Positions 7,401-63,483 of a DNA stretch of 64,000 nt are shown here, in pieces; positions within the stretch are counted from its first letter, which is position 1, and each line of letters starts with the position of its first letter. The notes below the pieces were generated by a model. The model worked only from the letters and a program-made list of their open reading frames with translations, made no database searches and was not told the origin of the DNA. This DNA comes from Heptranchias perlo. Lineage: Eukaryota. Location of the stretch: contig NC_090339.1 of assembly GCF_035084215.1 (NCBI RefSeq), positions 31,930,001 through 31,994,000 on the forward strand, written 5' to 3'. The translations under genes were made by a program, and so were the position numbers.

Positions 7401-9070
7401 GCGCTCAATTGGTTTCAGAATCTCATTCATGGGAATTTTGGAGACTCGTGTTTTTGTTGGAGGTTTCCTTCAATTCAAGTGGGGATCTGGGAGTGTGTTG
7501 CACGGAGCGTCCCCACAAACTGGCATTTAATCCATTTCATGGACTCACAGGCCGCCTGTAATTTCTGCTCATGTTTATATGGGTTGTATGAGGTTGCAGC
7601 CCTTGTTTTGTTATTTGAGGGAACTACTCCTCAAGTTATGGCTGCACTTCAGTCCCACGCTCCTGATCTTTGGCCGCCCGGTGAGGAGGGGGCGGGCAGG
7701 TCGGTGGACGTCTTCGTGGGCCTGCTCCTGGGCCTGTCCAAGGTGGCTATCCACAGGTCCAGGTTAGAAGTGGCCCGTGGGGGCGGTCGCTCCGACTGTC
7801 TGCCTCTCTTCCACGGCATTCTCTGTGCCCGGGTGGTCCTGGAAAAGGAGCACGCGGTGTCTGCCAGTACGCTTGAGGCTTTCCGCAACTGGGGGTCACT
7901 GCAGGGACTGGAGTGCATCCTCGATCAGGGGAATGAGATTATTATTTGAACTTGTTTATTTGTTTTTTTCTTTGGGTCTGATTTGTGGGTTTTATATTAT
8001 ATATATAAAAAAATGAAAGTTACCCCTTAACCCCCCCCACTTCTATAAAAGGGGGCCTGAATTAAAAGAGTGGCTAAACTACACATCCTTAACTCCCCCC
8101 CCCACCCCCCCCACTTCTAAAAAAAGGGCCTGAATTAAAAGAGTGGAGAAGGAGCACGAGGTGTCTGCCAATAGACTTGAGGCTTTCCGGTGGGCACTGC
8201 AGGGACTGGAGTGCATAGTCGATGAGCACAATGGGATTTTGGTTTAATTCGGCTGTGATTGGGTGTAGCATAAAAAAAAAACATTTTGGTAGCACTTCAG
8301 TAGGTTTTTGGGGTTCTTGACACTGGGGCAACCTGGTGTCTTTTTTCATGGTTTTACACAAAGATTCCTCCAATTCAAGTGGGGGTCTGGGGAGGAGAAT
8401 GTTGCACAGAGCAGTCCCCACAAACCGGCTTTTAATCCACTTTCCGGACTCCCGGCCGCCTGTAATTTCTGCAGCCTGGATGAGTCCGTGTTTCACATCT
8501 ACATGGAATGCGAGAGGTTGCAGCCCCTGTTCCACTATTTAAAGAGGCTGTTCCTCGAGTTCTGGCTGCATTTCAGTCCCACAGTCCTGATCTTTGGCTG
8601 CCCAGCGAGGCGGGGGCAAGCAAGTCGGAAATGATTCGAAATAGTGTCATGGGATTTTTTACATCCACCTGAGAGGGCAGACGGGGCCTCGGTTTTCCAT
8701 CTCATCCAAAAGACGGCACCTCCACATGGGTCTGCTCTTGGGCCTGACCAAGATTACCATCTACAGGTCCAGGTTAGATGCGGCCCGTGGGAGCGCTCGC
8801 TCCAACTGTCTGCCTCTCTTCTACAGCATTCACCGCGCCCTGATGGCCCCGGTGAAGGAGCACATGGTGTCTGCCAGTACACTTGAAGCTTTTCACGACC
8901 AGTGGGTGCTGCAGTGACAGGAATGCATAGTCGATGAGGACAATGGGATTTTGATTTAATGTGGTTGTGATTGGGTGTGCCAAAAAAAAAAACATTTTGG
9001 TTGCACTTTAGTAGGACTTTGAGGTACTTTTATTTTTCACAGGTTTCAATCAAAGATTCCTCCAATTCAA
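6950..9070 (+). mobile_element. Cluster of four co-oriented Tx1-clade LINE 3' fragments (about 6950-7215, 7470-8075, 8143-8290, 8375-8995)
   Basis: ORF2 C-terminal motifs AACNFCxLDESVFHIYMECERLQPLF, WLHFSPT, GLLLGLxKxxIxRSR, EKEHAVS and QGLECILD recur; the spacer ttcct(c/t)caattcaagt is shared. Confidence 0.8.
8640..8725 (-). mobile_element. SINE fragment (SacSINE1/DeuSINE-like) inserted in a Tx1 copy
   Basis: gggattttttacatccacctgagagggcagacggggcctcgg...catccaaaagacggcacctcc interrupts the Tx1 reading frame. Confidence 0.65.
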
Positions 9071-27382: not shown

Positions 27383-28445
27383 GACATCTGAAATGTTAAC
27401 CTATCTTTTCTCTAAACAACATGAAGTTGTGTTTGTCACATTTTTAAACCAAAATGAGTGGGTCTCACTCCAAATAAGTCAAACTTGATAGACCTGGTAT
27501 TGTCTGATTACCTAATAGGGCATTCATTACAGTCGTCAACATTGGGGAAATGTGAGCAGCAAGATTTATCATAAAAAGTGAGGCACTATTAGACCCATTT
27601 AAACAAATAGAGTTCTGGTTTAATCACTTGTAGCTCACATCTGGCCTTTCATTTATGTGCAAATATATTGGGATAGATTTTGTTGTGAGCGGCGAACGAA
27701 CAGCGCCTGCTGTTCGTTAGACTTGCCCTTGTCCATAGACTTTCCATGAGGTTTTGCACGGCAAGTTACTGTCAGCGGGAGATCCAAACAGTGCGGCGCC
27801 CTCTACAGGGCATCTGGGACCTGTGTGACCAGGACAAGCAACTGTCTATCTCCTTAACCAATCAGATTCAAGAGTCGTTAATGAGCAGTGCCGAGTCTGA
27901 ACCAGGAATTGTGGGCTCGATTTTAGGGTCGGGTTACCTGCGGGTTTCCAGCGGGGGGGCCCCGAAAATCCCGATCTCCGATCACGTGACCGGATTCGGA
28001 CGAAATCCCGGCCACTTCCGGGTACCGCGCTGACGTGCGGGGCTGCGCACGAAAGCCCCGCTGGTGGGAATCCCGCAGGCAATTAAAGCCAGCGGGGTTC
28101 CACTTGAGAGCACTTAACTTGCTCGTTGTGGTCAGTTAATGAGCTGAAGCAGCTGTCAAAAGAGGAAGTGTGGGATTTTAGGTTCAACGCAGTCAGTTTC
28201 CCACACTGGGGGAAACAGTACCCTTCAAACCAGGCGTGTTGCAGCCAGCAGCCTGTGGCAGGTGCCAAGGTGCGCTCCACGGGGGAGAGCCCTCACCCAC
28301 GCAGGAGGCCACCGCGTCACATAGGGCAACCCCTGCCCTCCACCAACCCCCGCCAAGCCAGAGGACAGACCGACACGAAACCGCAGCCCCAGTCCGAGGA
28401 CCCACCCACCTACCCTGCACAACCCCTCACACCAACACCTGCCAG

Positions 28446-29678
28446 ATGGGTGGTGCGTTGACATCGTCGGAGGACGAACAGGATGACCAGCCCCAGCAGC
28501 CTCGCAGTCCACGCCGTCCGCCTCGGAGAGGTGGGGCCCCCCAACACGGTGCTGCGGCACACCCACCTGCACAGCAGGAGGGAGGGCAACCGCAGAGAGA
28601 GATGCGTCGCAGGAGGCACTACCCTCCGCACAGGGTGTACAGAGCGAGGCTCAGCTTCATGGACCTCTCCGAGGAGCAGTGCATACGGAGGCTCAGAGTC
28701 AATCGCCAGGTAGTCGCCGACATCTGCAGCCTCCTTAACGACGAGCTGCTCCCTGATGGACCAAGCAGCATCTTCTTACCTGTCGCCGTCAAAGTCACCA
28801 CTGCCCTCGACTTCTTCGCATCCGGTTCCTTCCAGGGTGCCACCGGGGACATCACCGGGGTCTGTCAGTCCTCTGCACACAAGTGCATAAGGCAGGTCAC
28901 CGATGGGTTGTTCCGCAGGGCCTCCCACTACATCAACTTCGCCATGGACGAGCGCAGCCAGATGGAGAGGGCGGTTGGATTCCATGCCATGGCCGGCTTC
29001 CCACGGGTGCAGGGTGTAATCGACTGCACCCACATCGCAATACGGGCACCTCCGCATGAGCCAGGGCTGTTCATCAACAGGAAGGGGTATCACTCCATGA
29101 ACGCCCAGCTCATCTGTGACCACCGCCAGAGATTCCTACACGTGTGCGCCAGATACCCCGGCAGCTGCCACGATGCCTTCGTCCTCAGGGAGTCCGCCGT
29201 CCCGCCCATCCTGCAGGCACCCAACGCCGGCAACGGCTGGCTCCTCGGCGACAAGGGGTATCCCCTCCACACGTGGCTCATGACACCTCTGAGGAACCCC
29301 ATCACCGAGCCGGAGCGTCGGTACAATGACAGCCACACTGCTACCAGGTCTACAATTGAGCAGACCATAGGGCTTCTCAAGATGCGCTTCAGGTGCCTTG
29401 ATCGTTCTGGGGGAGCGCTCCAATACACACCATTCAGAGTGGGACGAATCATAGTTGTCTGCTGTGCCCTGCACAACATGGCCCAACAGAGAGGGGTGCC
29501 GCTGGAGGAGGCCCCATCCACACCCGCCACCCACATTGAGGAAGGCGAGGGCGAGGAGGAGGAGGAGGAGGAGGAGGAGGACGCGCCAGAGGATGTTGGA
29601 CGCCCCATGCGCCGAGCCGCGACTCACCGGGATGGTCGCCGGGCCAGGGACGCACTCATACGTCAACGGTTCTCCTAG
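28446..29678 (+). CDS. Harbinger DDE transposase (HARBI1-like), 410 aa from the first in-frame ATG
   Basis: Open frame with GVIDCTH, NRKGYHSMN, YPGSCHD, LLGDKGY, RSTIEQTIGLLKMRFRCL and CCALHN; acidic Glu run at the C terminus; AATAAA at about 29945. Confidence 0.95.
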   Translation: MGGALTSSEDEQDDQPQQPRSPRRPPRRGGAPQHGAAAHPPAQQEGGQPQREMRRRRHYPPHRVYRARLSFMDLSEEQCIRRLRVNRQVVADICSLLNDELLPDGPSSIFLPVAVKVTTALDFFASGSFQGATGDITGVCQSSAHKCIRQVTDGLFRRASHYINFAMDERSQMERAVGFHAMAGFPRVQGVIDCTHIAIRAPPHEPGLFINRKGYHSMNAQLICDHRQRFLHVCARYPGSCHDAFVLRESAVPPILQAPNAGNGWLLGDKGYPLHTWLMTPLRNPITEPERRYNDSHTATRSTIEQTIGLLKMRFRCLDRSGGALQYTPFRVGRIIVVCCALHNMAQQRGVPLEEAPSTPATHIEEGEGEEEEEEEEEDAPEDVGRPMRRAATHRDGRRARDALIRQRFS

Positions 29679-29975
29679 AGTCAGACACTGCGAGGCGCTC
29701 GCATCTCCTCACCTGCACATGCGAGCGGCCATACCAGCCCCCTCCACTGAAGAGTGCTGCCAGTAATCCTGCACCCACAGCAGTGTGCCCAATGGGTGGC
29801 AGCAGGTGTTCGCCGTCATGATGGCCTCCACTGAACGCAACTATTGCACAAGCCGCGGAAGAATGGACGAGAGGTGGCAGGAGTGGTGAGAATAGACTAT
29901 TTAATATCTGGAATGTGACATTATATAAGAAACAAAGTACAAAATAATAAACACCCTCGTGTATTCCCTTTGTGA

Positions 29976-30973
29976 TTATAAGGCCTTTGCAATTCTTCTC
30001 CGGGAACCCCTACGTGGTGCTACCCCCGTGGCTCCAGCAGAGGTAGTGGCAGGTTGCTCGTCTTCTTGCCTTGACCGGGTAGATGCTTTTGGCGGACGGC
30101 CCCTGGGTTTCGGTGCCCGTGAGGGCACCTCCACAGACTGCTCCTCCTGCACCGGGGCAGGGGCAGACTCGGCCACCTGGAGAGGAGGCACCATTGCGGG
30201 TACTGGTTGAGAGGTGGGTGACGGGTGGGACGTGGGGACGCCTTGAGAGGCGTCCCCGCTTCCATGTCCCCGGTCACCATCATCCCTCTCTTGGCCTCGG
30301 CCCACATCACCCCTTCCACCCTGCTGGACGGCAGTTTGGATGGCATGTGTGAGGCCTTGCAAGGCCACCCCTAGTGTATCCCTCAGCCTGTTGGTGGCGT
30401 CGGAATGTTGCTCACCCTGAATCCGTACAGACGTTGTCAGGGCCTGCAAGGACTCGAAGTGGAGCTGTGCGTGACGCTCGAGGGAGGCCAGCCTGTCCTC
30501 CACTGCAGACAGTCCCGCACCTACCCGCGACACTGTGTCGCCGGTACCCTCCTGTGCCTGCGCCACCAATGCCCACATGCAGGAGGTGGACTCCTCCATC
30601 GCCTGCGCTATTGTGGACAATGCGCGTGGCACCTCTGCCAGTACCTCAGCAATTAGCTGGTGGCCCTCGACGACTCTCCTTTTCACTGGTGGCCCCCTGG
30701 GTTCAGCATCTGGGTCCGGCTGAGCAGAGCCTGGAGATGAGTGCTCCCTCCGTCGCGGACCCTCCGCGGCTGCCCCTGCCACCAGGGTCTGCTCATGCTC
30801 ACTCGTGCGCAGTGACTCACCAAGTGCTACCCCAACTAGTTGGCGAGGGGGACCCACCGAGGTGCGTGTCTCTGCGCTGGTGGATGGTTGGCTCTGATGT
30901 GACGATGCACCCTCAGAGACCGCCATGTCCTCTGAGGAATCGCCCTCCACGCTCGCTTGACCCAAAGACGGAC
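29976..30973 (-). CDS. Harbinger Myb/SANT-like protein, exon 3 (spliced product 465 aa)
   Basis: ctcttgcag acceptor in compatible phase; open to TAA at 29976; helical central region and basic C terminus (PRGRP, RRGSRRR). Confidence 0.8.
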
Positions 30974-31089
30974 CTGCAAGAGAACAGAGGGCACTTTGAG
31001 GCATGTGGACCAACTTGACAGTGCGCCTGATGGCAGGTGATGAGACGGTAACTCGCGATCATGGGTGTTGAGTGTCAGCTTTCCCTTAC

Positions 31090-31249
31090 CGGCCGTTTCG
31101 GCAGCGACACACTCGCCATCGGCCACCGACAGGCAATGTCGCGTGCGGGCGAGGTCGAGCGCCTCCACCTCTGCGTCGGTGAGCTCCACCACTTGCGGCG
31201 GCCCACCTCCGGTGCGTGCCCTTTCCCTATTGTTCTTGCTTCTCTTCTC
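31090..31249 (-). CDS. Harbinger Myb/SANT-like protein, exon 2
   Basis: ttgccttcacag acceptor; EKRSKNNRERARTGGGPP...LTDAE; gtaagg donor (phase 1). Confidence 0.85.
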
Positions 31250-31575
31250 CTGTGAAGGCAAAACACAGATGTGTGAGTGGGTGCGTCTTGCATCGTGAGA
31301 CGCATCGAGCATCGGTGTGGTTGGGTTGAGCGTGGCGCGGAATGGATGGGGGGAAGCGTGGGCCACGTGGCCATCCCATTGCATGGGGATTGGGGTGTGT
31401 GGTAGTGTTCGGGTGGGGTCAGGGACGGTGGGTACTTGCGTGCACGGCGAGGATGGTGAATGAGTGGCTGTGAGGATTGCTGATGGAGCGCAGTGGTGGC
31501 TGTGCAGGAGGGGGTTGTGATCTGCTTGGCGTGATGGTGGGGACGGGATGTGGGAGGGTGCGTTGGTGTACTCAC

Positions 31576-31815
31576 CTTGCCAGACCTAGTCAGGTCATTG
31601 AAGCGCTTGCGGCACTGCTCCCAAGTCCTTGGGGTGTTGCACCTGCTGCTCACCTCCGCCGCCACCTCGGCCCATGCCTTCCTGGTTGCGGCGGCAGGGA
31701 ACTTGCGCCCATCTTCTGGGAAGAGTGTTTCCCTCCTCCTCCTCACGCCCTCCAGCATCAGCTGCAGTGCCAGATCTGAAAAACGGGGCGCAGCCTTTCC
31801 CCTTTGTTGAGCCAT
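31576..31815 (-). CDS. Harbinger Myb/SANT-like DNA-binding protein, exon 1
   Basis: MAQQRGKAAPRFSD...AWAEVAAEV...RTWEQCRKRFNDLTRSGK, then gtgagt donor (phase 0). Confidence 0.9.
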
Positions 31816-32728
31816 TCTCCCAGACCTCTTGCTTGCAGCAGGAGGGGCTTTGGGAGACTGCCCCTTTAACTGGAGCTCCTACATCGCGTCGAAGGTACTG
31901 CGCATGCGCAGCCGGCCGGCACGCAGCTGGGGAGCGCAGAACCCGGAAGCTGGGCTTAATGGGTCCAATTATCCCGCGGGGGACGCACACGATTAGCCGT
32001 CCGCGTTTTCCACGCTCCCGGAGGACCACCCGCTGGGAACCCGCAGGCCTGCTAAATTCGAGCCCTGTAAGTTAGAATAGTGAATTCAATGTCAAATCAG
32101 GTACAGAAAGTTAAATAAAGAGAGTGAAAAAAAGATTGGATTAAGATTGGATTAAGAGAGAGAAATAAAAGAGACAGAAAGAAATAGTTTTAAAAAATTA
32201 TTTAAATTTCCAAAGAAAATCTCCAGCAACAATTAAAAGCTGAAGGAATGAGACTCCACACTTGTAAAAGTTAGTTTTCAGTGCCAGAGAGGTTGTTTGG
32301 CAATAATTAAGACTTATCATGCCATTAAAAGAGTGCTTAGACTGGTATAGACTAGCCCTAACTTTTCTGGTGAGTTTAGTCCGTATCTAAAGGAACTTCA
32401 CGTCATTCAATACATGTGAATGGGGAGCCAGATGGCGAGATGCCATTTTCACGCAGCTTACGGATTTTCGCGTTTAACTGTGCATCTCCGCTTGTCTGAA
32501 GTTGCTGCGATTTGCACATAAGTAACGGTGAGTGCTGTTAGCCTCACCCTTATTTTGGAAGTAAAGTCTGGCCCATTGTCCTCTGGTGTCTGAACTTGGG
32601 GGGGATTTGCACAATCCAACACACTGCCATCTGGTGCTCCAGTCGGAACTATTGCTTCAAAGCCACTGAGCTGAATTTTCCTCAAGCATTTTATAACAGG
32701 ACACAGTGGAACTCCCCAAAATATGGCT

Positions 32729-39380: not shown

Positions 39381-40604
39381 GTAAATCGCCCCCTTTCTCG
39401 AAACTTGGCTTCGAATTCAAAGGAAGCTTTATTTTTTCCTTGCCTTAATCTCACCTTTTTAAATTTCCTTTTGGCGAATTATAATAGCCTAAGTATCATG
39501 GTTACTAGTAAGACTAATATTGTCTTCCGCTTTATATCGGAACTCGTGGTTTTACAGAATCTGAGCGATTTAATTTTGACTTAATCCCACGAACACATTC
39601 TCTTTACAAAAATTATTCAATTTTGCAGCTGATTTTTTTAAGAGATGAATGACCTGTTAAGATTTTTGCTTCCATGCAGTTTTTTAAAAAAAAATTCAAG
39701 TACCCAAACTGAGTTTTGTGTGATAATTACATTTTCGTAAGCAAAAGATTGGCCATTCATACCCAGTTTCCTTTTGCGAGATCGCCTGCATTTGCTCCTT
39801 TTTCTATTGGCACCCTCCCAATAGGATAGTACTCTAATCGCCTTTTTCTTGCTCCTGGCCCAAGCTAAGAACTTGTTCATGTGTTCTACCTCACCTTGGT
39901 ATGTTTAAGCGTACCACTGGTCCTTTTGTAAGGTGGTTAGTGGGAGGGAGTGACTGATTTCGAGCTCTCGGAGGTCACTGCACTACAGACCATCTGAAAT
40001 TGAATTGCAGCTTCATTTTTAATGCAAAATGTATTTTTGAGGATGGCTGTGATGGCTGTGAGCTGACATGGCTTTTATGGAGCTTGCTGTCTGATATCTT
40101 GATCAAGTAGTGGATACTCTAGAGGATTGGGGATGAAGTAGATTTTGAAGCTTCTGGCTTCAATAGTCCATTTAATATCTGGAAGAATGCAGGCATGGTG
40201 GTCATAGTGGCATAAATGTGAAATGCTCAAACAAGTGCTTTGTCCCCTAGGTGTGTTAGACTTTTCTAATTTATACCAATATAAATTACATGCTTGAAAC
40301 AGTATAATTTGGCTTGTATTTTGAATACTAAGTTGAAGTCCATTTCAATAGAGACTGAATAGTTGTGGCTGATTTTATTTTTGTACTTTTTTTAAGAGCT
40401 CAAAAAAATCATAATTTCTGAGCTTCCAGCAAAGAAGCCCATTCTTTGTTTAACCTTGTACTTCTGATTTTAGCTAGACAGGGGCAACATTGCTGGCTCT
40501 TTAAAGTTTCTACTAGAAAGAGAAATTGGAGGGAGAAAAGGAAGAGTAGGGACATTAAATTTATGAATGAATGGTAAAATGCTAATATCTTTTTTTTAAT
40601 GCAG

Positions 40605-41479
40605 GTCCTTGGCATGCCCATCATGTTCAATACAATCTGCACTATCTTCCAGAGCTGGAACATTTGATTAAAGTTGTTGTTGTGTATTTGCACAGCCCTC
40701 TTCCCAATCACTTCCAGGTTTCTTGTGAGATCAAATGTCTCCTTGCAAATTATGTTAACCTAAACTCTATTCAGAATGCCACTGCCATAGAATTGCCAAT
40801 CAGGTTTGTGCTAAAGCTGAATGACCAATGGGCAGAAGCTGACATAACTCCATGTGTCTTCCTCCCAACTGGTAATTCTGTGAAGAAAGTAGATCTACAC
40901 ATCAGTTACAAGTGTGCTGAGCTAGTAAAGGCCAGTCAAAGAACTCTGGACAAAAAAAGGAACTCTGCTGTTCATCTGCAAGTGCCCTCACTGCTGCTGT
41001 ACTTAAATGATACTGATGAGACTGCACATCAAAGAAGGGAGAAACGGGAAAAGCAAATTCCAGAGAGGCCATCCAAATCCCGTGTACTGTCTAGGAAGCC
41101 CCGGCAATTAAGTAACATTGGCTCAGACATTCCGAACTATCTCCATAAGAAAAGTCCTCCAAGGAACAAATGCAAACTCCATTCATTCTGGGTAAGCTTT
41201 GAGCAGCTGGGATGGGATCACTGGATTGTGGCTCCTCACAAGTACAATCCAAAATTTTGCAGGGGAGACTGTCCTAGAATTCTCAACTATGGGTACCACT
41301 CTCCAAACCATGCAATAGTGCAGAATTTTATCAATGAAATTGTTGATAAAAATGTCCCCCGTCCATCTTGTGTCCCCTTGAAATACAGCCCAATTAGTGT
41401 TCTTATGAAGGAGCAGAATGATCACATTGTATACAAGGAGTACAAGGACATGATTGCAGTGTCTTGTACATGCAAATAG
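40605..41479 (+). CDS. BMP15: Bone morphogenetic protein 15, exon 2 (prodomain, RKPR furin site, TGF-beta mature domain)
   Basis: ttttttaatgcag acceptor in phase; PSLLLYLNDT; CKLHSFWVSFEQLGWDHWIVAPHKYNPKFCRGDC...SPNHAIVQ...RPSCVP...CTCK, with Ser replacing the dimerisation Cys; SHROOM4 synteny. Confidence 0.95.
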
Positions 41480-42064: not shown

Positions 42065-44949
42065 CTGTCAAGCCTGCTACTCTTGACCCATTCAAATAGA
42101 AATCCTTTCAAGCCAAATGTAAATATAGGCTCATTTTAACTCAACAGAATTAGGAATGCTCCAATAGTTGTTTAACCTGACCTGCAGTAACCTTTTTTAA
42201 GCCATACTGTGGGGAAAATACTATTCCTTCAGTAGCTGAAGTTTCACTTGAGGGTAATCAACAAGGTGGCTCAGGAAGCTCTGATATATAAATTACACAA
42301 GTGAATGTCTGCACCTTCATTGTGGGAAGCCCTTTTTCTAGCTGATCAATGCACAGGATTGAGGAGGGGGTGGGGGGAGGGAAACTCACTTAATGAGCAA
42401 CAGTTTTGTTCATTAGTTCACTGGGAATTATATACAAGTCCAACAATGGAACAGTAAACTTCAACAATTTTAAATAACTAGCTAATGCACATGTTTTTTA
42501 ACCCCCCCAAACTTTTGCATCTTAACTTTTTTTTTCTTTTTTTAAAAGAACTTCCACAGTGCCAAGAGATTGGAACTGGAATAAAATTAATCTTGGCTAC
42601 TGCAGTCCTCAAGGGGTTAACAGAATCTGAAATGTATGCAGGTAGAATTGAAAGCTATATTACAATCTAGAGTCTAAAATGTCCATTCCAGTTTATCTAA
42701 TGTTTTGAATTCCTGTCACCTAGGTTAATCTTGTCTAGATTTGTCATCTTAATGTTACTCAACTTGTTGCTTCATTCTCTTCAAGCAATAGTTGAAGTAT
42801 TTGCAGTACATGCTCAGCTACTAATTTCAATGTACAGGAGATCTCTATGGGGTAAAATGCTGATTTTTGGCTGTTGTACATGTACTGTTTAATCAGTGAA
42901 AGGTCTCCTACTTAAGTTAGTAACTTAAATACAGAAATCCTAAGTGACCAATGCAGTCTGAGTTATTGACTCTTCTGATGTATGTACTTTGTATTCAGCC
43001 TTCCCATTAGATCTAGTCAAACTAGATGTGTAAATTGGGAGGTGGGGTGTTGCATATACTTGTAGACTGACAATGCAAAAATTTTGTCTTTGATGTAAAC
43101 ACCTTTTGTGTAAGCTGTGCAAAAGTACTGTAAATGCTGTAGCTATTAACACTGAAGAGTCTATTGAGCTGACCCTGGTCTTGTACTGTCTTATCTAACT
43201 TGCATACTCAATAAAGAAATGGCTTGAAAACCTTGTGTAAAGCAGAATTGAACTTTAATTGTTCTTGATTTTGAGACTTTGCATCTCCACTGGAGCTGAG
43301 ATTTCAGACTTGGTATGTAAATTCATTATAGAGCAATGTTTGATCCAATTAACCACCCTTTTCAAAATGGTAACAGTATCTAAGTGCTACACAGGCTGTT
43401 GTAATGGAAGGGATAGCTTTTACTGTTTTCCTTGATCATGCAAGAGGGGATATGATTACCCCATTTTGGAAATGTTGTCCTCTAATTGGAGGGAGGGTTC
43501 AACTGTAACTAGGATGTTTGACTCTGCCTAATTTGATTTTTAATTGGGCTAATGTATAATCAATACATATCCACAAGCAACTTGACAAATTTTACAGAAA
43601 TGTAAAATATCAATTTTGTGTCTTGGGCTACATTTTTGTGGGGGAAGAAAAGTGAAACACTTTTTTCCCCTCCTGATTGTAGTTGAGTACACATGAAGCT
43701 AAACCCTTAGACAAGAGCACAGCCACCTTCACCCACTAAGATTCTATGCCTGTCAAAAGAGCTGGGAACAGTTTGGTCAGACCTTGAGCATTCTATTAAC
43801 TTGTAAATGCAATGATTTTGAAGTGCCTATTGCAGCTCATTATGTCCAGTTGAATGCTAACTTGGATAGTCACATGCTTACACTTAACTGAATTGATCTT
43901 AATTTGCTGGAAAATATTTAATACACAAATCCAGGATTTGAATGTAGCCTGCTTTAGTGGTAGCTATGGATATGTGAACCACTGTTCCTATCACAAGATG
44001 GTCTTCAGATTAGGTGCTTGTGTAGTATACATACCTGACAATGTTTGCAGGTTAGCAATTTTTCATGCCCTCACTTCCCTATACATCACAGCTGCCACTT
44101 ATTGAGGCAGATACATTACTTTTTACTTCCTTGGCTAGAGGGCAGTAAGTGGGGTACATGTACCAGATTTTAAAATGCACATGTACACCTGCACTTGGAT
44201 TGTCTCTCATTCCTATTAATGAGTCTGTAAGCCAATTTTTCTCCTTGTTTAGTTGTGATTTGAGTCTGTTTGAATAGTAAACTACCTGAGGTAATTCTTT
44301 TCCCCACTTCCAGCAGTGATATTTTTGGTTTCTTTGACAATCTCTTGCTCCTTTTGGTTGGTGACTGCAATATATTTTGCTTTCAGTGTAGCAGTTACCA
44401 GAAATGACCTTGCACAGTTGATTTTATTGCTTTGCTTTAACATTCACAATTATAGATTATTTTTTCATTGAATGCATAACATTAACTTTTTGAAACATGT
44501 TTCAATGAGGTGTTTCATACCATCCTGGATTTTTGGAAGAGCAATACCAAACCTACTTATTTAGTTTTCTCCACTATGGGTGGAATTGCAACTTCAGTGG
44601 GAAAATAAGGGGAAAAGTCTTCTATAAATAACTGGAGGACAAAAGTTTGAAGTTAAGTGGAAGAACAAAAGTACTTGCATAGCATACTAAATATTGCAAC
44701 ACTAATGAGACCAAAAAATGTAAATGACAAGATTGTGGGAAGACATAACCAGTAGTTACATGATCTGTGCTAAGTACATAAAGAATACTGGCATCTGTAC
44801 ATTTCAGTATTAAGATGGGCATTACCATGCTTAACTTTATAATACATTGCTTCAATAAGTTTGCTGTGTTAGTGGGCAAATCTAGACTGCAGTAAAGCAT
44901 TGGTCAGGTCTTTAATTACCTTGAGAGTGTTGGGGAGGGGAAAGGAGGA

Positions 44950-45690: not shown

Positions 45691-45787
45691 GTATATATGT
45701 CTTTCTGTGGAGATGCCGGTGATGGACTGGGGTTGACAATTGTAAACAATTTTACAACACCAAGTTATAGTCCAGCAATTTTATTTT

Positions 45788-45832
45788 AAATTCACAAGCT
45801 TTCGGAGGCTACCTCCTTCCTCAGGTAAATTT
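45788..45832 (-). ncRNA. Minimal type I hammerhead ribozyme motif (antisense twin)
   Basis: Reverse strand reads aaatttac-CTGAGGA-a-ggagg-tag-cctcc-GAAA-gc-tt-gtgaattt. Confidence 0.72.
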
Positions 45833-45871
45833 ACCTGACGAAGGAGGAAGCCTCCGAAAGCTTGTGAATTT
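45827..45871 (+). ncRNA. Minimal type I hammerhead ribozyme motif
   Basis: Stem I aaatttac/gtgaattt; core CTGACGA plus an extra A; stem II ggagg-aag-cctcc; GAAA; palindromic AGCT in place of stem III; CUU cleavage triplet. Confidence 0.75.
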
Positions 45872-45989
45872 AAAATAAAATTGCTGGACTATAACTTGGT
45901 GTTGTAAAATTGTTTACAATTGTATGTCTTTCACATAACTTATCAAACGTGCCATTATGCCTAAACAAAAAGTAACTGCTGAACTGCAT

Positions 45990-46340
45990 TGCCCCCTTGA
46001 CCTGGCTCCGCACCTGCTGTCTCTCTCGATCAGGAAGTGGCTATTACTACTGCCGCTGATTGGCTGCGAGGTTCTTGCCTCTACAGGTGAGCAGGACGTC
46101 ACTTCCCGAGAGACGAGACGATAAATAGTTGACCAGGTGAGAATCGGGGAGAGGGAAAACCTCGCGGCTGGTCCGATCAAACCAAAGGGCGAGAAGAGGC
46201 CCGGCGAGCGGACCAAGACCAGGAGGGAGTGCGAGGCTGCGGGCGGGCCCTCAGCCCGCCTCAGAGGAATAAACCTAAATAGAGCGACTGAAGGCCGGAG
46301 TCAGTCCGGGAGGAGCGGACGGGAGCAGGAGGTGTTTCTA
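45990..46340 (+). promoter_or_regulatory. CpG-rich promoter and probable non-coding first exon of the NEK-family gene
   Basis: ETS caggaagt 46031-46038, reverse CCAAT (attgg) 46059-46063, CRE/ETS composite gacgtcacttcc 46095-46106; candidate donor cag/gtgaga near 46137; candidate acceptor tatag near 48315 before the ATG. Confidence 0.65.
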
Positions 46341-46344
46341 CCTC

Positions 46345-47865
46345 CATTCTACCATAAATTCCAGCTCCAGTTTGGCAAGTCCGAAGTCATCATCTTCGGT
46401 CCCTGCCACAAACCCGGTTCCTTCACAGATTGCATACCCTTCCCTGATGCAGCCTCAGGCTGAGTCAGACTATTCCCATACTTCCCTGTAACAGCCTCAG
46501 GCTGAGTCAGACTATTCCCATCCTTCCCTGATGCAGCCTCAGGCTGAGTCAGACTATTCCCATACTTCCCTGTAACAGCCTCAGGCTGAGTCAGACTATT
46601 CCCATACTTCCCTGATGCAGCCTCAGGCTGAGTCAGACTATTCCCATACTTCCCTGTAACAGCCTCAGGCTGAGTCAGACTATTCCCATACTTCCCTGAT
46701 GCAGCCTCAGGCTGAGTCAGACTATTCCCATACTTCCCTGTAACAGCCTCAGGCTGAGTCAGACTATTCCCATCCTTCCCTGATGCAGCCTCAGGCTGAG
46801 TCAGACTATTCCCATCCTTCCCTGATGCAGCCTCAGGCTGAGTCAGACTATTCCCATACTTTCCTGATGCAGCCTCAGGCTGAGTCAGACTATTCCCATA
46901 CATTCCTGATGCATCCTCAGGCTGAGTCAGACTATTCCCATACTTCCCTGTAACAGCCTCAGGCTGAGTCAGACTATTCCCATCCTTCCCTGATGCAGCC
47001 TCAGGCTGAGTCAGACTATTCCCATACTTCCCTGTTACAGCCTCAAACTGAGTCAGACTATTCCCATACTTCCCTGTAACAGCCTCAGGCTGAGTCAGAC
47101 TATTCCCATACTTTCCTGATGCAGCCTCAGGCTGAGTCAGACTATTCCCATACTTCCCTGATGCAGCCTCAGGCTGAGTCAGACTATTCCCATCCTTCCC
47201 TGATGCAGCCTCAGGCTGAGTCAGACTATTCCCATACTTCCCTGTAACAGCCTCAGGCTGAGTCAGACTATTCCCATCCTTCCCTGATGCAGCCTCAGGC
47301 TGAGTCAGACTATTCCCATCCTTCCCTGATGCAGCCTCAGGCTGAGTCAGACTATTCCCATACTTTCCTGATGCAGCCTCAGGCTGAGTCAGACTATTCC
47401 CATACATTCCTGATGCATCCTCAGGCTGAGTCAGACTATTCCCATACTTCCCTGTAACAGCCTCAGGCTGAGTCAGACTATTCCCATCCTTCCCTGATGC
47501 AGCCTCAGGCTGAGTCAGACTATTCCCATACTTCCCTGTTACAGCCTCAAACTGAGTCAGACTATTCCCATACTTCCCTGTAACAGCCTCAGGCTGAGTC
47601 AGACTATTCCCATACTTTCCTGATGCAGCCTCAGGCTGAGTCAGACTATTCCCATACTTCCCTGATGCAGCCTCAGGCTGAGTCAGACTATTCCCATACT
47701 TCCCTGTAACAGCCTCAGGCTGAGCCAGACTATTCCCATACTTTCCTGATGCAGCCTCAGGCTGAGCCAGACTATTCGCATCCTCACTACTTTGTTCTAC
47801 TCTGAATGGAGTTTCAGACCCCGTATTCTCCCCGTCACTAAGATTGCCTATTCCATCTCTGCAAC
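46345..47865 (+). mobile_element. L2 LINE fragment hosting the minisatellite
   Basis: Flanks aagtccgaagtcatcatcttcggtccctgccacaaac and gagtttcagaccccgtattctccccgtcactaagattgcctattcc align with consecutive parts of the L2 at 4436-4640. Confidence 0.75.
46433..47777. repeat. 42-bp minisatellite, 32 units
   Basis: Unit cttccctgatgcagcctcaggctgagtcagactattcccata; units counted from the 14-aa periodicity of the antisense ORF. Confidence 0.97.
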
Positions 47866-48348
47866 TTTGCTTGCCCCTGCTCCTGTACCTGGTTGGGAGA
47901 TATGATGTGGTGGATACTAAGCAGTTTGATCCTCTACAAAAAAAAATTGTAATTTTTTGCTGCAGGTAGGAGAAATTATAAATAATTTTGTAGTACTTAT
48001 CGAGATGACGAGTATGTAAAGATCGAAAGTTGCTTCCCTTCTCCTCTTCTCTTCCCCCCACCGCCCCCAAAAGGAGTATTGACCTTTTAGTCTTTTAATA
48101 AACATCAGGAGCTTGCATGTAGAGGATCACAAATTGCAGTCTGTGCCCTACAGATCAATGGCACTTCACTGTTGGTTTGCCACTGAAATAATTCATGCTA
48201 ACTAACTGAAGAGTAATTGTTAATTAAATAATCATATAAATTACTGTTTCTTCACTGCCTAGTTATGCAAACTGAGCAGAAATAATCTTTGTCATCTGTC
48301 TTTGTGTATATATAGCGCAAACTCTCAACTGTAACTGAACAGAATAAC

Positions 48349-49507
48349 ATGGAGAAGTATGAGAAAATCATGACAATAGGAAGGGGTGCAAGTGCAGAGG
48401 TCCACTTGATGAATAATTTAGAAACAAAAAAGCTGTATGCTGTCAAAAGAATAAAGATTGATTCCTCACTCAAGACTAGAACCAAAGAAGCTGTTATGCA
48501 GGAAGCGACCATTTTGACCAGACTCAAGCACCCTCACATTGTCACTTGTCATGAGTACTTCATTGACCTAGAGGAAGAGTATGTCTTCATAGTGCAAGAT
48601 TATTGTGATGGTGGCACTTTGGATGACTTAATCCAGTCTAAAAAAGAGAAGGGGTATTTTGCTGAGAAGGATATTATGCAGTGGTTTGTTCAGTTAGTTA
48701 TGGCCATTCAGTATATTCACTCCCTGAAAATTCTTCATCGAGATATTAAAACATCCAATGTCTTTCTTACAAAGAAAGGTACAGTTAAACTTGGTGATTT
48801 TGGAATTTCTAAAGTAATGACCCACACTTTGGATATGGCAAGTACCTGTGTTGGCACACCATGCTATTTGAGCCCAGAACTCTGTCAAGATATTCCATAC
48901 AGCTCCAAGTCTGATATCTGGGCACTTGGTTGCCTTTTATTTGAACTTTGTGCTTTGAAACCTGCCTTTCATGCAAGGAACCTAATTAGCTTGTTTTATA
49001 AAATTGTAAAAGGAGAGTATGCCTGTGTACCCAAGAGCTATTCTAAAAACCAGCATAATTTGATCAAAAACATTCTCAACCAGTGCCCTGAAGAAAGGCC
49101 TAGTGCCAGCATTATCCTCAAAATACCTTATGTCCAAGAACATCTCAAGCTCTTCATCAGGGATCAGGAATCTCAGCTTACAAAATATCATTCTCTGAAG
49201 CATCTACACTCTGCCAAGTCGGAGAGTGATGAGCTCACTGGTGACCTACACAAATCTCTGCATCTTTGTGAAGGGGGCATGTGTACTAGGAACATCAAAC
49301 CAGACTCAGCACCACATTGCCTTAGTGATGAAAATGTAGAGGAGGCAGTCTCGGAGGTGTGCGAAAATATGGAGCCCAGTGACGAAGAAGATAAATGTAA
49401 TTACTCTGACGACTTTGATCAGGATAGTTTGTCCTCTGTAGAAGAGGATACAGAGGATGAAATATCAGTACCACCTCCAAGTGTTGAAACCCCTGAAGAG
49501 ACAGAAG
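48349..49507 (+). CDS. nek12: NIMA-related serine/threonine kinase, coding exon 1 (entire kinase domain plus acidic linker); nek12 assignment tentative
   Basis: [62 protein letters not shown] are NEK1/3/4/5-type motifs; GAAG/gtagtt donor, phase 1. Symbol recalled from the fish-annotated gene, not verified. Confidence 0.85.
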
Positions 49508-51991
49508 GTAGTTTGACATTTAGAATCTTTTGATACTTGTTTAATCCCCAATGTAACTGAATACTTCCAGTGTTGTCACCAGGTGTTTTTAGTATATTGT
49601 TACCAGTATGCCAAAGCAAATATTGCACCTAAGCTAATACTTTTTAATATTAATCCAATATATTTCTTAGTAATGCTCTTAATTCATCACCTCAAATCAT
49701 TCTCACCACAGCCATCATCAGTGAGAAACCAGTAAATCACCAGTACTTCATAGTGTTATAAAAACAAATCACATTTATGTAGTACTTGCTACGTTAGACA
49801 TAACTAAGTACTATTTCTGGCACCACCCAAGTTTGGAAGAAAATCTAAAAACACTGTTGTGTTTTCATATTATGTCCACTTAAACTGAACATTTCACACC
49901 CTATGCTTTACTGCAAGCCTGGTGACAATGCTATTGAAGTCTTCCGTATTGCAATAGCTAATGTCTTGTTAAAAATCCAGATTCTACACTTTTGTCATTT
50001 TATTTTCTCTCTCTTGATGTTCTGGCCAATATTCATCCATTAACCAATAGCATCAAAAAAACCCATATGAATTGTTGGTTAATCTCATTGCTATTTGTGG
50101 GATCTTGTTAAGCACAAGATGGCTGCTGCTTTTATCCACATGATAGTAAATGGACAATTCTATGTGAAGATCTTTGGGACACTTATGAGAAATGTGATAA
50201 GATGCTACATAGATACAAGTTGTTTCTATGAAGTTGTCATACTTGCCCCCAAATGATAGAAATGCTGTCTATAGCTGATGCCTAAGAGGGGGTGAATGCC
50301 CTTTCACTCCCAGTGGGTAGTGCTTGGCCTCTGGATGGAACAGTTGAGGTCAGGCATTGCAGGCACAATCCCACATCCAACCACTCCATGTGCAATGTAT
50401 TTTAGTCCAATGTACTCTGCCACCATATTGCCTCACCTGAAATTTCCATTTTAAATTTCATTGCTATTCATGGTTCCACTTCTTGCTGTCATGTGTTGAA
50501 CAGACAATAGTAATGGTTTGCTTGAGATTCACCAATGATTACATCAGTGGAACAGTTGGGAGCAGGAGTAACTAAAGAAAAAGGGCAATACAATCTGAAG
50601 GAATATACTTGAGGATTGTTTGTCAAAGTGTTAAGATTAGTGATTTACTTCATGAATTTATCTAAAAGGGAAGTTTCATTTGTGATTTGCATCTTAGCCA
50701 AACTATAACTAAGCTCTGCAATCCTTGCAAACAGGGTAAGCATGTACTTTTTATTCAAACATTTCAAAAGGGATTAAAAGATAAATTTCTTCTGATTTGC
50801 TGCTGTTCATTTTCTTATTCCAGCAAGCCCCATTCCTTGCTTCCTCTTATTTACATTTGTCTTCTTTAGTTCAAATTACTGTAGGAGGCAGGGTTGATGG
50901 TATGGCATTATACAATGATTGACAGGTGTCCCATATCAGCAATACATATAAAAAATATTAAAATACTTTGCACCTGGAAGGGAAAAAGCACTCTAAAATG
51001 CATGGATAAGAATTGCTATTTATTAGAGATTCTGCCCACTTGTTTCCAGGAAACCCTGCATTATCTGAGCTTAACAAGCAGTGGGAAACTTACCAGTGCT
51101 CTGGGCTGGTAAGCTGCATGGTTTAGACTGTTAAACTACAACAGTAATCCTATGCATACTTGGATTTGTAAGCCTTGGCAGTTGGCAATCCGTGTCTAAA
51201 TTCTTTGGGCTTGGGTATGTGGAGTTTGTCCCTATGGAGAAAAATGTGTACTCCATATTAGGCAAACAAACTACTTACATGGGTTTTTTAGATTAGTTTG
51301 TTGAACATAGTGCATGTCAGACCCCCGCTCCCCCAAGAAAAGTTTAAAGAAATACAGTAATTAATGTAAAAGAGAGGAAAGCTAAACAGAATGAATCGTC
51401 ATAGCTACTATCTATTTATTTTCCTCACATGCTAAATTACCTATTCTACTGTTGGTACCTTCTGGGCAAAAATTCCTTCACTTATGGATGCACTTTATTG
51501 CATGTATAGACACTGATGCACAGGAACACTGGCCGAGAGGACATTATCGTACAATTCATCTGGTGTTCAGCTAAGTGGAAATTAGGATTGAAGCAGCTTT
51601 TCCCCACCTTCCCCTCAGCTGTTACCTTCACAAAGTTACCATGCAGTCCTTGGCTAGGAGCAACTGGAGTCCATATATGGGTGCCAAAATAATTTGGTCA
51701 GCTGGTTCTTATCGTTAAGCAGCTGCAAACTGTACAACCCACTTCTGTGCCAGGTGCAATACAAAGCCATTTCTGTATGTGTGCACAGAGGTACTTGAGG
51801 TAGGTGTGCCATGCTTAAGTTTCCTTTTAAAAATATACCATTTAGCAAACCTGGAGCCATCTACCGCTAAGATGGCTCCATCTATCGCCATATAATAGAA
51901 GGTGTGAGTTGGATATCCTGAGAGTGTATGAATGAGTTTTGACCAAGTATAGATACCGGTTATAAACTTTGTTTATATTTATGATTGGTAG

Positions 51992-59431: not shown

Positions 59432-61425
59432 GGGCTCGATTTTACCAGTGGGTTTCGTGTGCGTTTCCAGCGGGGGGGCCCCGAAAATCCCGATATCCAG
59501 GCACGTGACCGGATCGCGCCACGATCCCGCCCACTTCCGGGTTCCCCGATGACGTGTGGGGGTGCGTGCGCAGCCCCCGCTGGTGGGAATCCCGCAGGCA
59601 ATTAAAGCCAGCGGGATGCCACTTGAGTGTATTTATTTTGCTTGTTCAGGTCATTAACTGACCTGATTAAGGGACTGTGTGTGATTTTGGAGAAACATGG
59701 GACTGTATCACACACTGGGGGAAACAGTCCTAGTTGAACTGGACGTGTTGCAGCCGTCAGCCTGTGGCAGCTGCAAAGGTCCATTTGACAGTTGGGAGGT
59801 GGGGGGAGACCCTCACCCATTGCAGGAGGCCGCTCTGTCACTTGGGACAAAGTGTGGCCTCCACCACCCCCCACCTGACGGTCAAAGTCACCAACCTGCA
59901 CACTCACCCCGGGGTCCGGAGACATATGCCTACCTTGCGGACCCCCTCAGATGTACATATTGCGGATGGGGGCCGCCGTAGCTGCAGTCATGACCTCCTC
60001 GGAGGGCGCCAGCCTCGCCATCCACGCCGTCCACCTCTGAAACGTGGAGCTCCACAACAGAGTGCTGTGACACATCCACCTGTACAGCAGGAGGGAGGGC
60101 TACCGCAGAGAGAGACGCGTCGCAGAGGGCACTACCCTCGCCACAGGGTCCACAGACCGAGGCGCAGCTCCCCGGACCTCTCTGAGCAGCAGTGCACACG
60201 GAGGCGCAGATTCACTCGACATGTAGTTGTGGATATCTGCAGCCTCTTTCATGCCGAGCTGCTCCTGGCTGGCCCCAGCACCATCTGCTTACCTGTCGCT
60301 GCCAAAGTCAGCACTGCCCTCCACAACTTCTCCTCCGCATCCTTCCTGGGTGCAGCCGGGTATACCGCCGATGTCTCTCAGTCGTCTGCGCGGAAGAGCC
60401 CTGCAAATACACCTGCACCTACTCTGCAGTAACACAATGGGTGGCATCAGTGGTGGGTCCTCATAGTGATACCCAGGAGCAGGCATTATTGCACAAAACA
60501 GACAGGATTCGCGGAGACATGGCAGTGGTGGTGCCAATATAATGTGTGATGTGAGTTGTTCTGAAATTCAATATAGGTAACACCCATGACAAACCCTCAA
60601 ACACCCTTGTGCATCCCCTTCATGCTCACGACACGTTTGCCTTACGCTGCCTACTGCACATATGTGATGCATGCCCTGTGGCTGCAGCACAGGTGGTGGC
60701 AGGTTGAGTGAGGCTGGCCGTGAGGGAGATGCACGAGAGGGTGCGTATGGGATAGAGCCATGAGATTATGTGAGGATAGGGTTGCGTGTTATTGGCGGGG
60801 TGAGTACTCGCGAGGTGAGTAGGTGCAGGTAAGATGAGGATGGGGTTTGAGTGGGTATGAGGGGTGATGTGACAGAGTGGTGTTGGCGGTGCCGAAGGAG
60901 ATGTGGGGTGGGGGCAGTGTTGTGGCAGACGGAGTGTAGGGGAAAGACTACGTGTTCTCACTGTGGCTGACCTACTGCGGTCATTGGAGCGCCTCCTGCA
61001 CTGTATGCAGGTGGGCGATATGTTGGTGGTGCAGGTGACCTCCTCTGCCACCTCGAGCCAGGCCTTCTTGGTGGCAGAGGCAGGCCGCTTCCTCCCGCCC
61101 GCCGGGTGGAAGAGCTCTGTCCTCCCCCTCCTCCTCACCCCATCTGATGATACCTGGGGTGAGGCATCATTAAACTGGGAGCAGCCTTCCCCCTGGGCTG
61201 CTCCATGCTGTAATGTGTTCTATTGGTTGCAGCATCTGTCAGTGGAGGACTGCCCCTTTAACTAGAGAGCCTCCAGCTGACAGATCGTACTGCGCATGCG
61301 CAGCCCGCCCGACGCGCAGACCAGCAGCGCGGAGCCCGGAGGAGCAGGTAAGTGGATCCAATTAGTGTGTTGCCTGCTACGATCGCGCGGGCAACCCACT
61401 AATTTCACCGAGCTTGTTAACCACG
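59432..61425 (+). mobile_element. Non-autonomous internally deleted Harbinger, copy A, lacking its right terminal ~50 bp
   Basis: Left TIR gggctcgattttacc; transposase 5' remnant (LPVAAKVSTAL) and Myb/SANT exon 1 remnant (KKAWLEVAEEV); stops abruptly at gttaaccacg. Confidence 0.92.
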
Positions 61426-61437
61426 GCTGTTAACCTG

Positions 61438-63483
61438 GGGCCCGATTTTACCAGGCCTGCGGGTTTCCGGCGGGTTGGGTTTCGGGAGCGTGGTTAACAC
61501 GCTCGGTGAAATTAGTGGGTTGCCCGCGCGATCGTAGCAGGCAACACACTAATTGGATCCACTTACCTGCTCCTCCGGGCTCCGCGCTGCTGGTCTGCGC
61601 GTCGGGCGGGCTGCGCATGCGCAGTACGATCTGTCAGCTGGAGGCTCTCTAGTTAAAGGGGCAGTCCTCCACTGACAGATGCTGCAACCAATAGAACACA
61701 TTACAGCATGGAGCAGCCCAGGGGGAAGGCTGCTCCCAGTTTAATGATGCCTCACCCCAGGTATCATCAGATGGGGTGAGGAGGAGGGGGAGGACAGAGC
61801 TCTTCCACCCGGCGGGCGGGAGGAAGCGGCCTGCCTCTGCCACCAAGAAGGCCTGGCTCGAGGTGGCAGAGGAGGTCACCTGCACCACCAACATATCGCC
61901 CACCTGCATACAGTGCAGGAGGCGCTCCAATGACCGCAGTAGGTCAGCCACAGTGAGAACGCGTAGTCTTTCCCCTACACTCCGTCTGCCACAACACTGC
62001 CCCCACCCCACATCTCCTTCGGCACCGCCAACACCACTCTGTCACATCACCCCTCATACCCACTCAAACCCCATCCTCATCTTACCTGCACCTACTCACC
62101 TCGCGAGTACTCACCCCGCCAATAACACGCAACCCAATCCTCACATAATCTCATGGCTCTATCCCATACGCACCCTCTCGTGCATCTCCCTCACGGCCAG
62201 CCTCACTCAACCTGCCACCACCTGTGCTGCAGCCACAGGGCATGCATCACATATGTGCAGTAGGCAGCGTAAGGCAAACGTGTCGTGAGCATGAAGGGGA
62301 TGCACAAGGGTGTTTGAGGGTTTGTCATGGGTGTTACCTATATTGAATTTCAGAACAACTCACATCACACATTATATTGGCACCACCACTGCCATGTCTC
62401 TGCGAATCCTGTCTGTTTTGTGCAATAATGCCTGCTCCTGGGTATCACTATGAGGACCCACCACTGATGCCACCCATTGTGTTACTGCAGAGTAGGTGCA
62501 GGTGTATTTGCAGGGCTCTTCCGCGCAGACGACTGAGAGACATCGGCGGTGTACCCGGCTGCACCCTGGAAGGATGCGGAGGAGAAGTTGTGGAGGGCAG
62601 TGCTGACTTTGGCAGCGACAGGTAAGCAGATGGTGCTGGGGCCAGCCAGGAGCAGCTCGGCATGAAAGAGGCTGCAGATGTCCACGACTACATGTCGAGT
62701 GAATCTGCGCCTCCGTGTGCACTGCTGCTCAGAGAGGTCCGGGGAGCTGCGCCTCGGTCTGTGGACCCTGTGGCGAGGGTAGTGCCCTCTGCGACGCGTC
62801 TCTCTCTGCGGTAGCCCTCCCTCCTGCTGTACAGGTGGATGTGTCACAGCACTCTGTTGTGGAGCTCCACGTGTCAGTGGTGGACGGCGAGGCTGGCGAT
62901 GTTGTGCGCCCTCCGAGGAGGTCATGACTGCAGCTACGGCAGCCCCCATCCGCAATATGTACATCTGAGGGGGTTCGCAAGGTAGGCACATGTCTCCGGA
63001 CCCCGGGGTGAGTGTGCAGGTTGGTGACTTTGACCGTCAGGAGGGGGGTGGTGGAGGCCACACTTTGTCCCAAGTGACAGAGCGGCCTCCTGCAATGGGT
63101 GAGGGTCTCCCCCCACCTCCCAACTGTCAAATGGACCTTTGCAGCTGCCACGGGCTGACGGCTGCAACACGTCCAGTTCAACTAGGACTGTTTCCCCCAG
63201 TGTGTGATACAGTCCCATGTTTCTCCAAAATCACACACAGTCCCTTAATCAGGTCAGTTAATGACCTGAACAAGCAAAATAAATACACTCAAGTGGCATC
63301 CCGCTGGCTTTAATTGCCTGCGGGATTCCCACCAGCGGGGGCTGCGCACGCACCCCCGCACGTCATCGGGGAACCCGGAAGTGGTCGGGATCGTGGCGCG
63401 ATCCGGTCGCGTGCCTGGATATCGGGATTTTCGGGGCCCCCCCGCTGGAAACGCACACGAAACCCGCTGGTAAAATCGAGCCC
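61438..63483 (-). mobile_element. Non-autonomous Harbinger, copy B, complete (2046 bp) and inverted relative to copy A
   Basis: TIRs gggcccgattttacc / ggtaaaatcgagccc with a CTG duplication (61435-61437, 63484-63486); ORF track is a mirror image of copy A. Confidence 0.94.

Follow-up and report, generated by a model that had tools for sequence, protein, structure and literature searches.

Relationship to Known Penelope-Like Elements

Insertions of EN+ Penelope-like elements (PLEs) place an inverted, 5'-truncated copy beside a direct copy, carry a tail of 30-40 nt on one side and a short target duplication, and have a TATA box and an initiator in the pLTR (PMC3846280; PMC8557442); the PLE "tail" has been described in PMC3846280 and PMC11167929. 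All of these features recur in the shark insertions described here, which are represented by a palindromic stub in a 64-kb window (the whole 64,000-nt stretch of Heptranchias perlo DNA that was analysed). The origin of the inverted repeats and of the one-sided tail is an open question that PMC3846280 and PMC8557442 defer to experiment. In contrast to the published insertions, the stub has no ORF unit between its repeats and occurs in thousands of copies rather than a few, and the present data point to twin priming instead of the self-priming favored in those papers.

The Poseidon-clade element PAc of Anolis carolinensis has been studied in vitro; two internal initiation sites bound its tail, both target strands were extended, and uncleaved RNA was the main substrate, with a dimer predicted (PMC11167929). 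Two tail-bounding end sites, AT-rich targets and an uncleaved template are shared with the shark family. The PAc ORF begins inside the hammerhead (PMC11167929), whereas the shark parent element has the cysteine linker of the Neptune and Nematis clades and carries the hammerhead and both end sites in its 5'UTR, before the ATG. Strand-specific use of the two sites lay outside the tests of the Anolis paper, and no discussion of inverted arms was found in its available sections. The thousands of young insertions in the shark genome yield specific predictions for this in vitro system (PMC11167929).

Metazoan PLE hammerheads (PMC4209133) share with those of the window the CUGANGA core, an extra nucleotide at 9/10.1, the G10.1-C11.1 pair and a palindromic 15.2-16.2; the minimal type I anatomy proposed in a preliminary description of this locus fits these features. 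In Schistosoma, dual hammerhead motifs occur on opposite strands 100-700 bp apart (PMC4209133), whereas in the shark a distance of 0-50 nt separates the paired motifs at 7,404 or more sites; the hammerhead count of 44,037 compares with approximately 9,000 in Xenopus (PMC4209133), with the qualification that the search methods differ. Non-LTR retrozymes (bioRxiv 10.64898/2026.07.22.740005) are likewise short, non-coding, hammerhead-bearing and PLE-derived; yet they form head-to-tail tandems that are thought to be amplified through circles, whereas the stub is a single head-to-head unit with no evidence of a lineage of its own. Assignment of the window copy to the non-LTR retrozymes was rejected on the same grounds, a single head-to-head unit with no tandem repeat at the site. 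Both the inverted-pLTR-plus-tail architecture and the hammerheads are already known PLE features; within the limited coverage of the literature searched, neither a twin-priming account of PLE inverted repeats nor a description of shark PLE palindromes was found.

In the twin priming of LINE-1, a second nick primes a second cDNA, with the result of an inverted segment and an end-joined junction; the inverted part represents a different, upstream portion of the RNA. In the shark insertions, in contrast, both cDNAs would represent one and the same stretch, begun at two fixed sites approximately 35 nt apart. If true, such a mechanism of two nicks and two sites would constitute a retrotransposition mode of its own, in a group whose reverse transcriptases are the closest retroelement relatives of telomerase; the near-perfect palindromes, at least 7,404 in number, may in addition supply hairpin RNA and cruciform DNA.

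Anatomy of the Palindromic Insertion

The insertion at 45706-45923 is the only copy of the palindromic element in the 64-kb window. Its two arms (45736-45829 and 45830-45923) measure 94 nt each, are 98% complementary and meet with zero spacer, and in this respect the spacerless palindrome of the preliminary description is real. Positions in the arms are numbered from u1, the base preceding the hammerhead core, with the parent ATG at u123. The features, with coordinates in the window, are as follows:

45696..45705, plus strand: target-site duplication, left copy, 10 bp (direct repeat)
45706..45829, minus strand: long arm, a copy of the parent 5'UTR from approximately 4-5 nt upstream of the hammerhead core to u120
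45706..45735, minus strand: unpaired 30-nt PLE tail, which spans the interval from the short to the long 3' end site
45714..45777, minus strand: predicted stem-loop u49-u112, low confidence (parent 5'UTR fold)
45780..45785, minus strand: AATAAA of the long arm
45790..45830, minus strand: minimal type I hammerhead motif of the long arm, with N7 = G and loop UAG (motif anatomy as in PMC4209133)
45826..45833, no strand: head-to-head junction
45829..45869, plus strand: minimal type I hammerhead motif of the short arm, with N7 = C and loop AAG (motif anatomy)
45830..45923, plus strand: short arm, the other copy of the parent 5'UTR, tailless and reaching to u90
45874..45879, plus strand: AATAAA of the short arm
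45923..45932, plus strand: target-site duplication, right copy, its first base common to the element end

The flanking direct repeat is genuine, but its length is 10 bp (45696-45705 and 45923-45932), not the 9 bp first reported; the shorter count arose because position 45923, the first base of the repeat, doubles as the end of the element. A loose motif scan of the whole window found exactly two hammerhead motifs, one on each strand, as described before; GAAAGCTT at 45856-45863 on the plus strand gives the previously proposed predicted cut after 45863, and the mirror predicted cut on the minus strand falls at 45796/45795. The reported AATAAA was found in both arms, at 45874 (+) and at 45780-45785 (-), and the two arm mismatches lie exactly where they had been placed, in the stem II loop (45811/45848) and at the variable core position N7 (45820/45839); both mismatch states of the window copy segregate within the family. 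The unpaired left end at 45706-45735, left uninterpreted in the preliminary description, is the PLE tail. The long arm ends at u120, 3 nt before the parent ATG, and the head-to-head junction can be accounted for by joining through a 2-nt microhomology (AT) at 45829-45830, approximately 3 nt inside the predicted transcription start. In the low-confidence stem-loop u49-u112, the short end site would be located at the apical hairpin and the long site just 3' of the base; the parent 5'UTR fold is no stabler than shuffled sequences (z-score -0.85).

A covariance-model search, proposed earlier as a check, returned no hammerhead family from Rfam: at the gathering score there were zero matches for the palindrome, and at a relaxed threshold (E <= 10) none of 23 matches belonged to a hammerhead family. 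The matches were all to hairpin-shaped families below threshold, among them microRNA precursors; the latter reflect the hairpin shape.

The Parent Penelope-Like Element

The pattern of the tail plus the bases that follow it occurs at 1,331 sites of the genome, some of them 3,081-3,083 bp apart; these include tandem parent units of 3,083 and 3,081 bp with an intact 902-aa ORF (loci L106-L108). The ORF contains a reverse transcriptase domain (RVT_1, E 3e-10) with DKG and YIDD motifs, a CX4CX2C linker at residue 753, and, at the C terminus, a GIY-YIG match (E 5e-4) that scores 20.9 bits, under the Pfam cut-off of 22.6. In the Atlas look-alike cluster of the parent protein, GIY-YIG is found in 13% of the members, and a PDB search with this protein returned only a reverse transcriptase, at E 0.85. 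The long arm matches the 5'UTR of the L106-L108 units at 96% over 125 nt and differs by one base from that of a closer parent, L104, in which TATAAA lies at -38 from the hammerhead start; the stub almost certainly derives from the parent 5'UTR. The Penelope link of the preliminary description, including similarity to a GIY-YIG/RT element, has thereby been borne out by the parent with its 902-aa ORF, and the presumed youth of the insertion agrees with the best matches of the 40 scored copies, which are 98-100% identical.

The hallmarks of EN+ PLEs were found in combination: an ORF with RT and GIY-YIG (the latter below the cut-off), tandem pLTR units, and an inverted copy with a tail and a short duplication. 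A CX2-5CxxC linker between RT and EN marks the Neptune and Nematis clades (PMC8557442); the label "Neptune-type", chosen over Nematis, is provisional and leans on the report of Neptune from fishes (PMC4209133). The parent element is probably active. Identification of the parent also bears on the alternative of a MITE-like DNA transposon with long terminal inverted repeats; the insertion is short, palindromic, present in high copy number and flanked by a duplication, as a MITE would be, but its ends are asymmetric and ragged, the duplication varies from 7 to 15 bp, and its sequence represents the 5'UTR of an RT element. Contradicted by the parent identification, a MITE origin was rejected and retains practically no probability.

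The L106-L108 loci on chromosome C1 are tandem arrays of three to four almost identical PLE units; within L106, a single residue distinguishes the two 902-aa ORFs, and both arrays terminate at or near the short site. Assembled contigs in four sets from one sample cover the parent stretch; they may represent DNA. Several assembled contigs start or stop near L093:1606-1640, within the ORF and approximately 90-120 nt from its beginning, and one run shows small deletions; the contig breaks may reflect an assembly branch.

Family Size, Outer Ends and Target Sites

The exact hammerhead pattern occurs at 44,037 sites in the 3.25-Gb genome and forms 3,340 head-to-head pairs with centers of 0-20 nt and 4,064 with centers of 21-50 nt, 7,404 in total; controls with the reversed pattern yielded zero pairs in all. 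Since 3,340 pairs stand against none in the reversed control, the head-to-head arrangement is far beyond chance. The genome-wide count suggested earlier, of copies with the same symmetric center, found the 3,340 short-centered pairs; their centers are diverse.

Outer ends were located in 111 arms from a consecutive run of sites on chromosome C1. The 3' ends are bimodal: u82-91 accounts for 51 arms and u119-133 for 48, the interval u96-118 is empty, and 12 arms end elsewhere. A long arm is combined with a short arm in 115 of 120 head-to-head pairs, or in 85 of 90 after removal of the 30 loci that were chosen by BLAST with the window element; independent choice of ends would be expected to give this combination in about half. 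Among the complete blocks of the consecutive chromosome sample in which each side has a 3' end of the long or the short type, the ratio is 34 of 35, and these long-plus-short blocks include insertions of 901, 2,296 and 3,328 bp. The five exceptions among the 120 pairs consist of three short-plus-short pairs, one truncated pair and one that runs into the ORF.

Single-arm insertions are common; 14 of 74 complete blocks are one arm with a duplication of at least 9 bp, which shows that a second arm is not obligatory and counts against twin priming. A further 21 single-arm blocks have no duplication, and some of these are halves split by foreign sequence. Single arms terminate at the same two 3' end sites as paired arms. 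The target duplication is 12-13 bp long in 83 of the 115 long-plus-short pairs (range 7-15 bp) and has a G+C content of 30%. The outer ends overlap with the duplication by means of 2.4 and 1.9 nt, compared to 1.1 and 0.9 nt in 300 simulated insertions, and the short end shows target microhomology as the long end does; the excess at both ends is a modest signal for priming at both.

A Proposed Twin-Priming Model

The insertion is probably a promoterless by-product of an active Neptune-type PLE, generated by twin target-primed reverse transcription. The parent would be transcribed from its TATA promoter, with an RNA start 8-16 nt upstream of the hammerhead core, and the RNA passes through the 5'UTR of approximately 130 nt to the ATG. 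The GIY-YIG domain would then nick both strands of an AT-rich target approximately 11-13 nt apart, in keeping with the duplications. Synthesis of cDNA would be primed by one nick at the long site, close to the ATG, and by its partner at the short site, approximately 35 nt upstream; the templates would mostly be one uncleaved RNA or RNAs from one source, and sometimes different RNAs. The observations behind this priming step are the end positions, the long-plus-short rule and the concordance of the arms. Both cDNAs would extend to the 5' end of the RNA, or beyond it on read-through transcripts of tandem arrays, and host end-joining would fuse the cDNA ends, with the microhomologies, blunt joints, local insertions and captured filler seen at the junctions as products. 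The outcome is a palindrome that is tailed on one side and contains two hammerheads copied along as passengers. Full-length copies could stem from priming on the downstream unit of a tandem read-through RNA, which fits loci L135-L137, L152 and L153. The 5 of 120 pairs that break the long-plus-short rule count against twin priming.

Inner Ends, Centers and Junctions

The parent TATAAA is located at -37 to -39 in subfamily A, to which the window copy belongs, and at -45/-46 in subfamily B. Transcription starts approximately 30 nt downstream of a TATA box; this spacing together with the TATA positions predicts starts at -8 (A) and -16 (B). In the unbiased sample, in which 21 of the 111 arms were too short for subfamily assignment, the inner end falls at -8 to -10 in 8 of 31 subfamily A arms, and 16 extend past -60; among 36 subfamily B arms, 13 stop at -14 to -18, 9 at -7 to -11, and 8 pass -60. 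Across the genome, -7 is reached by 17,267 A arms and -21 by 8,508, the latter counted with an exact motif that undercounts variants. Since the arm stops differ between A and B, the center of the palindrome moves with the TATA box, with trimming. This start-site signal is blurred by trimming; the second cluster of B-type inner ends at -7 to -11, where 29 of 62 palindrome-selected B arms also end (-7 to -10), is a point against twin priming.

The ribozyme cut left no comparable trace: only 164 palindromes genome-wide are centered at or after stem III, there is no pile-up at the cut, and cleaved RNA as the usual template was rejected on this count. Among 50 listed short palindromes, 23 are joined exactly across the stem III palindrome, and by eye both arms start at or after the cut in approximately 8.

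The junctions of 83 pairs that were not selected by BLAST comprise 34 with microhomology, 11 blunt joints and 38 with extra bases; some of these bases are no more than variants absent from the reference set. In five loci (L203, L205, L215, L217, L218) both arms reach the predicted start, with 0-3 nt between them or overlapping. Foreign filler separates the arms within a single duplication of 12-14 bp in L122, L164 and L170; in the last two it is 100-180 nt long and matches other repeats at approximately 95%. As an alternative source, such filler could derive from later repair of a cruciform break. In L041, L049 and L092 the hammerhead is partly tandem-duplicated beside the junction, which suggests template jumps or templated insertions; L080/L081, L086, L090 and L102 are head-to-head joins of long, ORF-containing arms truncated at different points.

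The centers also bear on the possibility that the PLE enzyme copies, in full length, the transcript of a non-autonomous palindromic master of SINE-like or retrozyme-like kind. PLE-derived non-autonomous retrozymes do exist (bioRxiv 10.64898/2026.07.22.740005), and some centers recur, the 8-nt center of the window being present in 24 of 30 copies, which had been selected by BLAST for similarity. Yet the centers are very diverse, an asymmetric 10-nt center is found with either N7 state and in either orientation with respect to the tail, the stubs have no TATA box since that of the parent lies outside of them, the long-plus-short rule extends to kilobase insertions with ORF sequence, and retrozymes are head-to-tail tandems; a master element is improbable, and a minor secondary lineage may exist. 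The self-standing mini-retroelement of the preliminary description is not supported, in view of the wide variation of centers among copies and the missing parent TATA box.

Concordance of the Arms and Their Templates

Arms of one insertion usually agree with each other. Across the 3,340 pairs, N7 is C/C in 1,071, G/G in 2,141 and discordant in 128, compared to approximately 1,500 discordant pairs expected from random pairing if subfamily structure is ignored; among the listed pairs with longer centers (21-50 nt), 5 of 50 are discordant. In a set that omits the BLAST-selected and discordance-selected loci, 38 of 64 pairs have identical arms over 72 nt, compared to 8.5% of random pairings. Five loci (L143, L217, L030, L063, L072) carry two different segregating haplotypes on their arms. 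By their sequences, the arms appear usually to mirror one template, with a minority of two-template chimeras; alternatively, chimeric arms could result from later gene conversion.

High concordance is also what fold-back copying predicts, and to that extent it counts against twin priming. In the published self-priming hypothesis, one cDNA or antisense template folds back, copying itself into the inverted arm, and the tail results from endonuclease resolution; head-to-head palindromes are best read as self-priming on an antisense template according to PMC3846280, and PMC8557442 derives the tail from EN-mediated resolution. The identity of the arms in most pairs is accommodated, as are the many centers that are short palindromic microhomologies. 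But the two-haplotype arms and the 100-180 nt of other repeats between the arms of L164 and L170 would each need a second event; arms that meet at the template end, as in the five start-reaching loci, leave no loop; and single arms stop at the same two sites, with target microhomology at the short end too. Self-priming is therefore considered unlikely, and twin priming is preferred.

The window copy is a candidate two-template chimera. Its long-arm haplotype occurs in an A-type context at 16 sites genome-wide, and the six of these with an A-type partner arm in view (the window included) are all unmirrored; a private loop mutation is as likely as two templates.

Conservation and Fate of the Hammerheads

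Among 18 hand-picked haplotypes the hammerhead core is invariant except at N7, and its stems are 90.9% paired, a value as high as that being reached in 2 of 500 shuffles; two-sided change is found in only 2 of 11 stem pairs, and the sequences are related. The extra nucleotide at 9/10.1, G10.1-C11.1, the palindromic 15.2-16.2, and stems I and II are all present. At the level of sequence, this conservation across the family points to selection in the parent.

The first reading of the window copy was that of a functional bidirectional self-cleaving and terminating unit, intact on both strands. Both cores are indeed intact, with mismatches at variable hammerhead positions, AATAAA is present on each strand, and the family keeps the core and stems of the hammerhead. 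But intact cores are expected from recent copying of a conserved parent, and the placement of the mismatches loses its value as evidence for selection on this copy, given that 26 of 29 other close copies have arms without any difference in their first 72 nt and that both mismatch states segregate in the family. Whichever strand is transcribed, the antisense arm comes ahead of the sense ribozyme. Folding of the full palindrome into a 94-bp hairpin yields -158.8 kcal/mol, compared to about -14 for the ribozyme fragment, which upholds the competition between hairpin and ribozyme folding foreseen in the preliminary description; with the antisense arm made first, such a hairpin would render cleavage and poly(A) signaling by the stub unlikely. 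In addition, metazoan minimal hammerheads did not cleave as monomers and cleaved little as dimers (PMC4209133), and the Anolis hammerhead required protein (PMC11167929). A bidirectional unit is very improbable; under the preferred twin-priming reading, the ribozymes of the stub are probably passengers buried in the 94-bp hairpin, and the window copy shows no sign of a function of its own.

A doubtful extension of twin priming is that two uncleaved RNAs of the same source pair via stem III on a dimeric PLE protein, each being primed at a different nick and site. If true, the hammerhead would be mainly a template-pairing device rather than a cutter; this would explain the conserved motif with uncleaved templates, the shared haplotypes and the minority of chimeras, and would account for the 23 of 50 listed joins across stem III, which plain microhomology does equally. 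ViennaRNA cofolding led to an extended duplex, not to a stem III dimer.

Genomic Surroundings

On one side of the stub lies a C-terminal exon of the TGF-beta family (40586-41479; E 8e-31), GDF9/BMP15-like by eye. On the other is a protein kinase ORF (48316-49533), NEK-like by eye, that carries an entire kinase domain in a single uninterrupted frame (Pkinase, E 3e-63). At 100-200 bp from the stub, the G+C-rich, CpG-containing stretch 45990-46400 looks, from its composition, like a promoter or first exon, and has near 46095 what we take to be a CRE/ETS-like motif. Approximately 500 bp from the stub follows a 42-bp minisatellite (46439-47781; 32 copies, 92% matches) with an open frame of 581 aa on the minus strand. 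Elsewhere in the window, a G+C-rich transposon at 28182-32075, presumably Harbinger-like, has an intact DDE_Tnp_4 transposase ORF (E 5e-37) and convergent ORFs, and two related, decayed transposon pieces lie inverted at 59734-63181, with near-identical ORFs on opposite strands.
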